A stretch of 64,000 nt of DNA from Escherichia phage EcoM2. The stretch lies in sequence record PQ818761.1; one strand, 5' to 3'. How positions within the stretch are numbered: position 1 is the first letter of the stretch; each line of letters opens with the position of its first letter. Positions 31,397 to 31,810 of this stretch are shown one piece after another. Position numbers and translations under genes: made by a program. The notes under the pieces were generated by a model. It was not told where the DNA came from and made no database searches. It saw nothing but the letters and a program-made list of their open reading frames with translations.

Positions 31397-31810
31397 ATGA
31401 AAATATGCAGTACTTGCAGAATACCAAAAGATGAAAGCTTATTCCATAAGAATAAGAACAAAAAAGATGGTCTTCAAAGTCAATGCAAAGACTGTGCAAG
31501 ACTTCGTGATGCAAAGAGTTATCAAGCAAATGATAAAAGGAAAGAGGCTATTAAAAGCACTCGTAACGTCAAGAGAGAGTATAACAAGGCTCTAGCTAGA
31601 AGGTACAAAGCTTTATGCAAATGTCATATATGTGGTGAGAAAGAACCAGTTGCACTGGATTTACACCATACAGACCCTTCCCAGAAAGATTTGAATCCTG
31701 CATCACTTTATTCATACTCCACAAAAAGATTAAAAGATGAAATCAGAAAGTGCATTGTCTTGTGCGCTAACTGCCACAGAAAAGTACATGCTGGTATCAT
31801 AAAAGTTTAA
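31397..31810 (+). CDS. HNH homing endonuclease
   Basis: 137 aa; Cys-rich N-terminus (CSTCRIP...CKDC), HNH motifs LDLHHTDPSQKD ... CANCHRKVH; embedded between tRNA genes. Confidence 0.7.
   Translation: MKICSTCRIPKDESLFHKNKNKKDGLQSQCKDCARLRDAKSYQANDKRKEAIKSTRNVKREYNKALARRYKALCKCHICGEKEPVALDLHHTDPSQKDLNPASLYSYSTKRLKDEIRKCIVLCANCHRKVHAGIIKV

Follow-up and report, generated by a model that had tools for sequence, protein, structure and literature searches.

An HNH endonuclease gene between tRNA-Gly and tRNA-Thr of Escherichia phage EcoM2 is probably a mobile homing-endonuclease gene

One locus of Escherichia phage EcoM2 raises the question of why a protein-coding gene should stand in a phage tRNA array, filling the gap from one tRNA gene to the next, and whether it arrived there as a mobile element. 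The window that we analyzed, a 64,000-nucleotide stretch (sequence record PQ818761.1), is that of a Felixounavirus (Felix O1-like myophage). On its plus strand, an open reading frame (ORF) at 31397..31810, with an ATG start and a TAA stop at 31808-31810, encodes 137 amino acids (aa). ARAGORN places tRNA-Gly(UCC) upstream at 31308..31382 and tRNA-Thr(UGU) downstream at 31812..31888, both also on the plus strand. The ATG lies 14 nucleotides (nt) beyond the 3' end of tRNA-Gly, and a single T (31811..31811, plus strand) separates the stop codon from tRNA-Thr. An earlier note on this DNA had read the ORF as a mobile homing endonuclease ending 1 nt before tRNA-Thr, and its account of the position is exact. 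The close fit is genuine but not special, as two other ORFs of the same array also abut tRNA genes: one at 32240-32797 stops 8 nt before tRNA-Gln (at 32806) and another ends at 33983, 1 nt before tRNA-Ser (at 33985). Because these are not homing-endonuclease genes, abutment provides no evidence for a mechanism specific to such genes.

The ORF is a real gene and not a chance reading frame, since it matches the PHROG 2255 "HNH endonuclease" family at E = 3e-41 over residues 1-134, has 140 database homologues, and is under purifying selection (dN/dS of 0.04-0.15 against its orthologues). It is the ortholog of Felix O1 ORF47 (NP_944871.1, "HNH endonuclease" in RefSeq), with 98.4% nucleotide identity and a single residue of difference at the protein level, V58 in EcoM2 in place of the F58 found in all other copies. 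As an already annotated gene, it is in this respect ordinary. The CxxC pairs and the LDLHH...CANCH signature on which the earlier note relied are all present (C4xxC7, C30xxC33, C76xxC79, L87-D-L-H90-H91, and C123-A-N-C126-H127), and residues C4, C7, C30, C33, C76, C79, H90, H91, C123, N125, C126, H127, and H131 are invariant in a family alignment of 38 sequences that share 35-65% identity with the window protein. The four N-terminal cysteines (C4, C7, C30, and C33; 31406..31495, plus strand), invariant in the 38 homologues, form a Cys4 zinc-ribbon module that is probably a DNA-binding or structural zinc site; the family profile aligns this stretch with the zinc-ribbon region of Hpy99I, and an AF2 model places strands at residues 16-18 and 26-30. 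The HNH (beta-beta-alpha-Me) core, comprising C76xxC79, D88-x-H90-H91, C123-x-N125-C126-H127, and H131, spans 31622..31789 on the plus strand, and its motif aligns to those of McrA and LtrA.

Against the strong PHROG match, Pfam PF01844 covered residues 76-132 with 17.4 bits, under its gathering cut-off of 21.4, HNH_2 scored 16.1, below its cut-off of 21, and an NCBIfam search returned no match. The AF2 model (pLDDT 95.5) has beta-beta-alpha-Me nucleases as its best structural neighbors, with modest scores. Neither the protein nor the family profile gave a significant match in sequence searches of the PDB. No characterized member of this 137-aa subfamily was found in the PDB or in the literature searched, and that literature contained no demonstration of cleavage, a target site, or homing for the protein or its subfamily. 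Within the window, tblastn detected no additional copy and no remnant, either of this family or of the other HNH genes known from Felixounavirus tRNA arrays. A crude HNH-motif regular expression applied to all window ORFs retrieved the 31397..31810 gene only; the scan is not exhaustive, as an earlier version of it missed even this gene.

Comparison with the tRNA clusters of related phages revealed empty alleles. The gene occupies 14 of about 253 related phage records with the Gly-Thr tRNA junction (~5%), Ro111lw among them, at the same site every time; the exact-junction megablast counts are approximate, since an occupied allele yields two separate alignments at 100%. Eleven of the 12 copies examined are intact, the copy in SFPB being frameshifted, and ST11 carries, at 25.6-25.9 kb, what appears to be a scrambled remnant, or else an assembly chimera, in which the Gly/Thr junction is duplicated. 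With a 1.6-kb query, the flanks were matched best locally by phage allfine, which lacks the gene (its spacer is AACAAT) and is 99.2% identical over the flanks; over wider flanks it is 98.7% identical on the left and 96.3% on the right. The blast comparison of loci also displayed an indel at 30103-30193.

Spacers extracted from 26 loci define what was inserted. Empty spacers are 6-7 nt long and come in three alleles, AACAAT, AATAAT, and AATTAAT. The last of these equals the occupied site minus a 422-bp cassette of ribosome-binding site and ORF exactly, so that the spacer measures 429 nt when occupied versus 7 nt when empty. In EcoM2, the left junction spacer AATTAA (31383..31388, plus strand) is shared with the AATTAAT allele; the cassette (31389..31810, plus strand) then consists of the 8-nt leader GGTGTGAT and the ORF with its stop, and the occupied site runs from AATTAA through GGTGTGAT and the ORF to GTTTAA followed by T. 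The boundary is ambiguous by 4 nt, as TTAA stands at both edges, and the junctions are identical in all occupied copies. Across 25 aligned loci, the 90 nt upstream of the junction vary at one position only, -31, and there in the single locus L018; apart from that substitution, occupied and empty alleles have the same tRNA-Gly, and they do not differ in the first 46 nt of tRNA-Thr. No single-nucleotide polymorphism (SNP) within -90..+46 nt separates alleles with the gene from those without it in these 25 loci, and the best association of a flank SNP with gene status was p = 0.03 at -159, uncorrected for multiple tests. The loci therefore do not support a polymorphic target of the kind that T4 Seg enzymes have in flanking tRNA genes, and we infer instead a recognition site that would span the insertion point and be split by the insert.

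The history of the gene is also decoupled from that of its surroundings. On its left it is joined to at least three flank haplotypes and on its right to several, all of them present also in phages without it. Among nine phages with close copies, its dS (0.013-0.17) was lower than that of ORF48 (0.10-0.37), 430 bp away, in 33 of 36 pairs (the pairs being non-independent), an approximately 2-fold lower divergence. The opposite pattern is seen in BPS15Q2, where the gene has a dS of 1.06 versus 0.10-0.12 for flanking genes and is thus ~10-fold more diverged; these comparisons draw on ~80-130 synonymous sites per gene. Two lineages of the gene at dS ~1 are found at the same site. This decoupling supports mobility, and on these sequence comparisons the gene is probably mobile. 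Presence or absence at a single site, together with a history separate from that of the flanks, lends support to the homing-endonuclease interpretation of the earlier note.

We thus consider it quite probable that the locus is a free-standing HNH homing-endonuclease gene (HEG), a minimal 422-bp cassette in the Gly(UCC)-Thr(UGU) spacer of the tRNA array, for which we propose homing. When a HEG-bearing phage and a HEG-less relative infect the same cell, the enzyme would nick or cut the empty Gly-Thr junction region, and recombinational repair off the HEG-bearing genome would then transfer the cassette, along with part of the flanking tRNA DNA, to the recipient. A recognition site divided by the insert would be the simplest means of self-protection.

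How such a cassette might be expressed can be read in part from its context. AAGGTG at 31387..31392 (plus strand), 4 nt before the ATG, is a putative Shine-Dalgarno sequence of the ORF, read from the sequence, and it straddles the insertion boundary. Folding of the RNA from 31383-31460 pairs it weakly (-11.8 kcal/mol, z = -1.8, with 10 of 200 shuffles as good), and translational occlusion of the start, as proposed for segB, is unconvincing at this z value. A consensus scan found no promoter or terminator belonging to the cassette itself, which suggests transcription within the tRNA precursor. The best sigma-70-like candidate, TTGACA-17-TATAGT (11/12), lies at 30071..30099 on the plus strand and could drive a unit from tRNA-Ser to tRNA-Cys that includes the HNH gene; this is only a suggestion, as the total of promoter-like sites was not above shuffle expectation. 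A weak promoter-like site (9/12) at 31771-31800, inside the 3' end of the ORF, belongs to site counts that likewise did not exceed those of shuffles. By the same scan, a terminator-like hairpin with a T-run follows tRNA-Cys downstream of the gene (34320..34337, plus strand), a second candidate stands just upstream of it (34287-34303, plus strand), and no plus-strand terminator-like site occurs between 28575 and 34287. The HNH mRNA would then be bounded by tRNA processing, at the 3' end of tRNA-Gly on one side (14 nt ahead of the ATG) and at an RNase P cut 1 nt past the stop codon on the other, and such processing would probably keep expression low, as proposed for T4 segB.

Strong purifying selection with ~5% prevalence fits an active selfish element, and it also fits a conditionally useful accessory gene. 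It is possible, if unlikely in our judgment, that the protein is an accessory nuclease that benefits the phage by cutting in or near tRNA genes, leading to exclusion of competitor alleles or to segmental amplification of tRNA (anti-defense) genes, as recently shown for SegB of T4/T6; selection in some hosts would then account for where the gene is found. This overlaps with the HEG reading, in that both need site-specific cutting of the array, and they differ in what maintains the gene. The low dN/dS, the long persistence at one site of two lineages at dS ~1, and the residence of the whole family in tRNA arrays, where its members separate many different pairs of tRNAs, are all in keeping with such a role, and the ST11 remnant with its duplicated junction resembles a rearrangement product. 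SegB itself is reported to amplify tRNA-Tyr against Septu, to amplify tRNA genes in escape from tRNA-cleaving defenses, and to belong to a family statistically associated with tRNA genes (PMC13096335). However, SegB is a GIY-YIG enzyme of unrelated sequence and offers an analogy only, the gene is confined to ~5% of Felixounavirus records, and no tandem tRNA amplification surrounds it in the window.

Alternatively, the patchy distribution could in principle result from one old insertion, many precise losses, and ordinary recombination. The gene would then be an immobile relic of vertical descent, perhaps inactive in homing, repeatedly removed by precise TTAA deletion while recombination made its flanks mosaic. 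Precise deletion is possible given that TTAA recurs at the two ends of the cassette, and AATTAAT is exactly what such a deletion would leave; Felixounavirus flanks are mosaic with or without the HEG, and one frameshifted copy and one remnant are on record. Yet AACAAT and AATAAT, which make up most of the empty alleles, are not TTAA-deletion products, dN/dS values of 0.04-0.15 and 11 of 12 intact ORFs oppose decay, and the contrasting divergence of the HEG against ORF48 and in BPS15Q2 is unexpected under vertical descent with loss. We regard this account as quite improbable. Less credit still goes to a packaging-associated HNH protein of the HK97 gp74 type that aids terminase, or to a junction resolvase of the T4 endonuclease VII type. 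The terminase large subunit gene does start ~2.8 kb downstream (34587..36203), several GenBank records label the ortholog "endonuclease VII", and PHROGs of that name match at E = 6e-10 and 1.5e-9; nevertheless, 10 tRNA genes and further ORFs intervene before terL, and an HNH endonuclease family leads the PHROG matches by 30 orders of magnitude. The endonuclease VII label also fails in Pfam, where PF02945 (Endonuclease_7) is not among the matches at E <= 1, and the terminase label was rejected for a gene at this distance from terL. The presence/absence pattern effectively refutes both, as ~95% of near-identical phages lack the gene yet package and resolve their DNA. The preferred reading thus remains a homing-endonuclease gene.

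The wider family shares the genomic niche. More distant relatives, at 34-61% identity, occur within the tRNA arrays of many other phages, where they abut or overlap the tRNA that follows, and members are known from Felixounavirus, from Erwinia, Pectobacterium, Pseudomonas, and Klebsiella phages, from crAss001, and from phages of actinobacteria. A location among tRNA genes was seen for all four homologues traced through their proteins and for 50 of 80 IMG/VR relatives, 290 of 297 neighboring tRNAs are on the same strand as the HNH gene, and in 33 of the 80 IMG/VR relatives the gene's end falls within -45..+60 nt of the start of a tRNA. In 9 of these 33 tRNA-abutting members, the stop codon is a TAG formed by tRNA positions U8-A9-G10, such that RNase P cleavage would remove the stop from the HNH mRNA. 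For tests of cleavage or homing in this subfamily, the Gly-Thr locus would be of help as a natural substrate set, with 14 occupied records, a frameshifted copy, a remnant, and three empty alleles, one of them exactly the allele expected before insertion or after excision.

That phage tRNA clusters harbor free-standing endonuclease genes is textbook knowledge, with T4 segB and the T5 F-Tfl genes as cases in point. PacI, which is among the structural matches to our protein, cuts at TTAATTAA, and the resemblance of this site to the AATTAA junction is taken as coincidence, as PacI has 12% identity to our protein. PacI and Hpy99I, small beta-beta-alpha-Me type II restriction endonucleases with 12-19% identity, resemble our protein at the level of the fold only, with modest scores, and are bacterial restriction enzymes rather than phage mobile elements. 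An HNH gene between phage tRNAs is already known from Felix O1, whose 2010 genome paper listed six HNH homing-endonuclease-like genes, ORF47 among them, and contained no analysis of empty alleles, junctions, or activity for ORF47 (PMC3185647); the two genes share the site and the length of 137 aa, and there is no substantive difference between them. In T5, F-TflI/II/IV (hegA, hegC, and hegD) are HNH genes of the tRNA cluster, according to Akulenko et al. 2004 as cited in PMC2330249. At their 3' ends, hegC and hegD run 14 and 23 nt, respectively, into the following tRNA (NC_005859), as in many relatives of the window protein. However, the T5 proteins have 193-227 aa and C-terminal domains of IPR010902/NUMOD type or helix-turn-helix type (InterPro annotation, NC_005859), unlike the 137-aa protein with its N-terminal zinc ribbon, which belongs to a different subfamily. 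Homology to them was rejected: in a blastp database of six T5 proteins (hegA, hegC, hegD, hegE, hegF, and T5.069), only the hegA HNH core aligned, with 28% identity over 65 aa at E = 0.003.

T4 SegB is a parallel in lifestyle, being a free-standing HEG inside a phage tRNA array: it is part of the tRNA precursor transcript, is missing from close relatives, and ends at the next tRNA. Its cutting of tRNA genes goes with driven inheritance of the tRNA region, and the end of its ORF coincides with the tRNA-Arg 5' processing site (PMC2330249); its cleavage sites are at tRNA gene 3' ends, in the T-psi-C motif, and its homing has been shown experimentally (PMC2330249, PMC13096335). The catalytic folds are unrelated, with GIY-YIG plus NUMOD in SegB versus a two-Cys4 HNH here. 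We tentatively suggest, as an idea still to be doubted, that the ~137-aa two-zinc HNH subfamily may be the HNH counterpart of SegB: endonucleases specialized for phage tRNA arrays across many phage groups, which would recognize conserved tRNA-gene features at spacer boundaries, hop between tRNA pairs, and carry neighboring tRNA genes along by co-conversion or amplification, shaping the arrays and the anti-defense role of these arrays, with expression throttled by tRNA processing. The occurrence of the subfamily in tRNA arrays of many unrelated phages parallels the 2026 SegB report on tRNA amplification. If the same is true of the HNH family, remodeling tRNA arrays by means of endonucleases would be a strategy of phages in general and not a peculiarity of the T-even phages.

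The HNH gene is a 137-codon open reading frame (ORF) that opens with ATG at 31397-31810 on the + strand, within an array of 25 tRNA genes, every one on the + strand, placed by ARAGORN at 28699-34157. Its neighbors are tRNA-Gly(tcc) at 31308-31382 (+) and tRNA-Thr(tgt) at 31812-31888 (+), and it follows from these coordinates that the ORF occupies the whole gap between both tRNAs. The 14 nt between tRNA-Gly and the ATG, AATTAAGGTGTGAT, include a Shine-Dalgarno-like AAGGTG, and just one nucleotide, a T, lies between the TAA stop and tRNA-Thr. The product carries the motifs CSTC, CKDC, C76-x-x-C79, LDLHH, and CANCH. 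The earlier note had described a gap-filling ORF, ending 1 nt before tRNA-Thr, with CxxC pairs plus LDLHH...CANCH, and every detail of that observation was confirmed.

This gene is already known and annotated, as the Felix O1 RefSeq genome carries the same ORF between the same two tRNA genes, under the name 'HNH endonuclease' (ORF47, NP_944871.1). The window insert is 98.4% identical to that of Felix O1 at the nucleotide level, and the proteins are one residue apart, at position 58 (codon at 31568-31570), where the window has Val and the other 10 intact copies all have Phe, a private F58V change. Residue 58 sits in the long helix joining the two zinc modules. The Felix O1 genome paper ruled out inteins, without a functional test (PMC3185647). 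Homing endonuclease genes (HEGs) are well documented in the tRNA-array niche.

The identification as an endonuclease, which the earlier note had drawn from motifs, held up in a profile search: the phage-specific PHROG 2255 ('HNH endonuclease') covers residues 1-134 with an E value of 3e-41, with the Pfam HNH model reaching 17.4 bits on residues 76-132, under its curated cutoff of 21.4. NCBIfam returned no match for the protein. The label 'endonuclease VII', found in some GenBank records, is unsupported because PF02945 has no match at E <= 1. A database search found 140 homologs, mostly 130 to 145 aa. Thirty-eight of these, 35-65% identical to the window protein, were aligned; the positions that never vary were C4, C7, C30, and C33 in the N-terminal half, followed by C76, C79, E81, H90, H91, E115, K118, C119, L122, C123, N125, C126, H127, R128, K129, and H131, which would amount to an N-terminal Cys4 zinc ribbon and a Cys4-braced His-His...Asn...His core. 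An AlphaFold2 model built from this alignment was very confident (pLDDT, 95.5), with strands at 87-91 and 119-123 followed by a helix at 124-131; its best Foldseek matches were HNH domains, at E >= 0.2. Nothing significant was found in the PDB by sequence or by profile, and thus no close relative has been solved or characterized. We conclude that the protein is a predicted nuclease of the HNH superfamily and belongs to a small and distinct two-zinc subfamily.

When 30700-32300 was searched by megablast against the phage collection, 255 records matched, nearly all of them Felixounavirus or Ounavirinae phages infecting Escherichia, Salmonella, Shigella, and Citrobacter. Odd host labels (Campylobacter, Staphylococcus, and Pseudomonas phage) also occur among the matches to the tRNA region, such as Campylobacter phage A132 (MG065664.1, 70.7 kb; 97.3% identical); these records are probably contaminants or mislabeled. 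Only 15 of the 255 records covered at least 80% of the 1.6-kb query, the typical coverage of 74% being the whole query minus the HNH ORF. The comparison with related tRNA clusters that the earlier note had proposed therefore shows the gene to be absent from most of them. Sensitive blastn with the insert alone found it at full length in 14 records. Copies of 96.5-98.8% identity occur in 12 records, within which AF320576 and NC_005282 are one phage, Felix O1; the BPS15Q2 insert (two records, 84.7%) is grouped here with that of SFPB (84.2%), and ST11 matched over a 128-nt fragment.

The spacer between tRNA-Gly and tRNA-Thr was read at 26 loci, 12 of them from GenBank and 13 on IMG/VR contigs, with the window itself supplying the last one. 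Twelve were occupied by the HNH gene, with identical junctions, AATTAA/GGTGTGAT-ATG...GTTTAA/T (slashes mark the cassette edges), and a spacer of 429 nt (430 nt in SFPB). Another 13 were empty, reading AACAAT (n = 6), AATAAT (n = 2), or AATTAAT (n = 5), and the remaining locus, ST11, belongs to neither group. Removal of the 422-bp cassette (31389-31810), which holds a short leader and the ORF only, leaves exactly AATTAAT. Since TTAA stands at both edges, the cassette boundary is ambiguous by 4 nt, and the AATTAAT allele could be either an uninvaded target or the product of precise deletion. Exact-junction megablast at >=99% identity gave raw counts of 41, 63, and 48 for the three empty alleles, the AATTAAT and AATAAT counts including ~14 occupied records aligned as two perfect pieces; this suggests that each empty allele is present in tens of records.

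Occupied and empty alleles do not differ in tRNA-Gly or over the first 46 nt of tRNA-Thr, the sole exception being one substitution at -31 in one locus (L018), and no single-nucleotide polymorphism within 260 nt separates the two classes (best P = 0.03, uncorrected). At least three haplotypes of the left flank and several of the right carry the HEG, and each of them also occurs without it. The closest flank match over the 1.6-kb query, phage allfine (99.2%; 96-99% in the wider flanks), lacks the HNH gene, and its spacer, AACAAT, is not a TTAA-deletion product. As for the gene itself, 11 of 12 copies are intact, and dN/dS between the window gene and its orthologs ranges from 0.04 to 0.15 (0.07 for the BPS15Q2 copy, which is 84% identical). 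When nine closely related copies are compared, the HEG has a dS of 0.013-0.17, compared with 0.10-0.37 in the same phages for ORF48, a conserved gene 430 bp downstream; the HEG value is the lower one in 33 of 36 pairs, which are non-independent. Between BPS15Q2 and the window, however, the HEG dS is 1.06, against 0.12 for ORF48 and 0.10 for ORF49. The history of the HEG is thus decoupled from that of its flanks in both directions. Such decoupling is predicted by homing, or by recombinational replacement by a second HEG lineage, which SFPB and BPS15Q2 (84% identical, same site) represent; vertical descent with loss does not predict it.

Two aberrant copies also fit an HEG cycle of invasion, decay, and loss. 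In SFPB, a more distant Shigella phage (OQ031072.1, Mooglevirus; 3015-3430), the copy is shifted by +1 near codon 31, and its annotated ORF is shorter, from an internal start; either the copy is decaying or the sequence contains an error. Salmonella phage ST11 (MF370225.1, 2944-3152) has a scrambled remnant at the same site, in the order tRNA-Gly, AACAAT, the first ~51 nt of tRNA-Thr, a 127-nt HNH fragment, the last 19 nt of tRNA-Gly, AACAAT, and full tRNA-Thr. The fragment corresponds to window 31505-31632, in the middle of the HNH gene, and has a 1-nt deletion and polymorphisms of the Felix O1 type; microhomology at the junctions is <=1 nt. The remnant reflects either a repair event between HEG+ and HEG- genomes that was aborted or switched template, or a chimeric assembly from a mixed lysate. 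Taken together, the window gene, polymorphic, cleanly inserted, and discordant in history, has the bioinformatic features of a free-standing HEG, and the empty alleles and discordant dS support the mobile homing endonuclease reading of the earlier note as far as sequence analysis reaches.

In the simplest reading, the HNH gene would be expressed as a passenger of the tRNA precursor transcript. The best upstream promoter-like site (30071-30099, +; 11/12 consensus match) lies right after tRNA-Ile; a consensus scan found no + strand terminator-like site between 28575 and 34287, and candidates follow tRNA-Cys at 34287-34303 and 34320-34337 (+). These are only suggestions, because promoter-like sites are no more numerous than shuffled sequences would give. 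Directly downstream of the promoter-like site, a 91-nt segment (30103-30193) with no repeat and no ORF is polymorphic for presence; 111 records, including Felix O1, have it, and allfine and many others do not. The translation start region of the HNH gene is weakly structured in an RNA fold. In the precursor, RNase P would cut 1 nt past the HNH stop codon. Processing of just this kind, at the tRNA-Arg junction, was proposed to limit expression of T4 segB by the authors of that work, who mentioned the same idea for T5 F-Tfl genes (PMC2330249). Two non-endonuclease ORFs embedded in the array also abut tRNAs, 32240-32797 ending 8 nt before tRNA-Gln (32806) and 33186-33983 ending 1 nt before tRNA-Ser (33985); tight abutment is therefore general in the window array and not HEG specific.

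The family extends beyond Felixounavirus. Four homologs of 46-61% identity, traced through their exact protein sequences (a 98-kb contig, Erwinia phage phiEa116, a 152-kb contig, and Erwinia phage pEa_SNUABM_56), all lie within tRNA arrays, between differing tRNA pairs, and in three cases the gene either stops 1 nt short of the next tRNA or runs 10 nt into it. An IMG/VR scan with the family alignment gave 80 loci (34-56% identity), 50 with tRNA genes <=1.5 kb away; 290 of 297 neighboring tRNAs were on the gene's strand. In 33 of the 80, a same-strand tRNA starts within -45 to +60 nt of the stop codon, most commonly at -10 (nine loci: L033, L041, L042, L066, L068, L069, L077, L090, and L095), an offset shared by L026, L027, and the second gene in L028. 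There the stop codon is the TAG of tRNA positions U8-A9-G10, and RNase P cleavage would therefore strip the stop from the mRNA. Four IMG/VR loci (L047, L065, L092, and L093) have cta-anticodon tRNAs ('tRNA-Pyl' by ARAGORN) beside family members. Such an anticodon would read the amber codon, and in TAG-recoding phages a TAG stop borrowed from a tRNA would fail to terminate. A different, recurrent context was seen in L049, L051, L053, L054, and L062 (IMG/VR; ~40-45% identity), where an opposite-strand tRNA-Leu(taa) ends ~20 nt upstream of the matched gene start and no second tRNA was found in the 1.5-kb flanks. By tblastn, relatives occur in 332 GenBank phage records, including Pseudomonas, Klebsiella, Pectobacterium, Vibrio, Streptomyces, and Mycobacterium phages and crAss001; for several, the annotation shows an overlap with a tRNA. 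These homologs make the two-zinc subfamily a habitual resident of phage tRNA arrays.

Several independent endonuclease genes make the Felixounavirus array itself a hot spot, with other HNH genes in other slots of other isolates. These include a 48%-identical paralog between tRNA-Trp and tRNA-Ser (L036, 1501-1905), Felix O1 ORF44 and ORF45 (33% identical; L001, 1-401 and 889-1281), and SP22_0470 and SP22_0480 (L022, 1285-1632 and 2224-2676), the last of a different HNH type and ending 1 nt before tRNA-Leu. None of these is in the window.

T4 SegB and the T5 tRNA-region HNH endonucleases are the nearest functional parallels. SegB, a GIY-YIG enzyme, cuts the 3' ends of tRNA genes and causes the tRNA region to be inherited preferentially (PMC2330249). 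Work from 2026 showed that it also amplifies tRNA genes against Septu defense, and there is a statistical association between its family and tRNAs (PMC13096335). In T5, hegC and hegD overlap the next tRNA. Only the HNH core of hegA aligns with the window protein, and weakly, so the T5 enzymes and the window protein belong to different subfamilies. It is conceivable, though rather unlikely, that the two-zinc subfamily is a general, SegB-like remodeler of phage tRNA arrays. The window protein is predicted to work like SegB and the T5 enzymes, yet it belongs to neither family.
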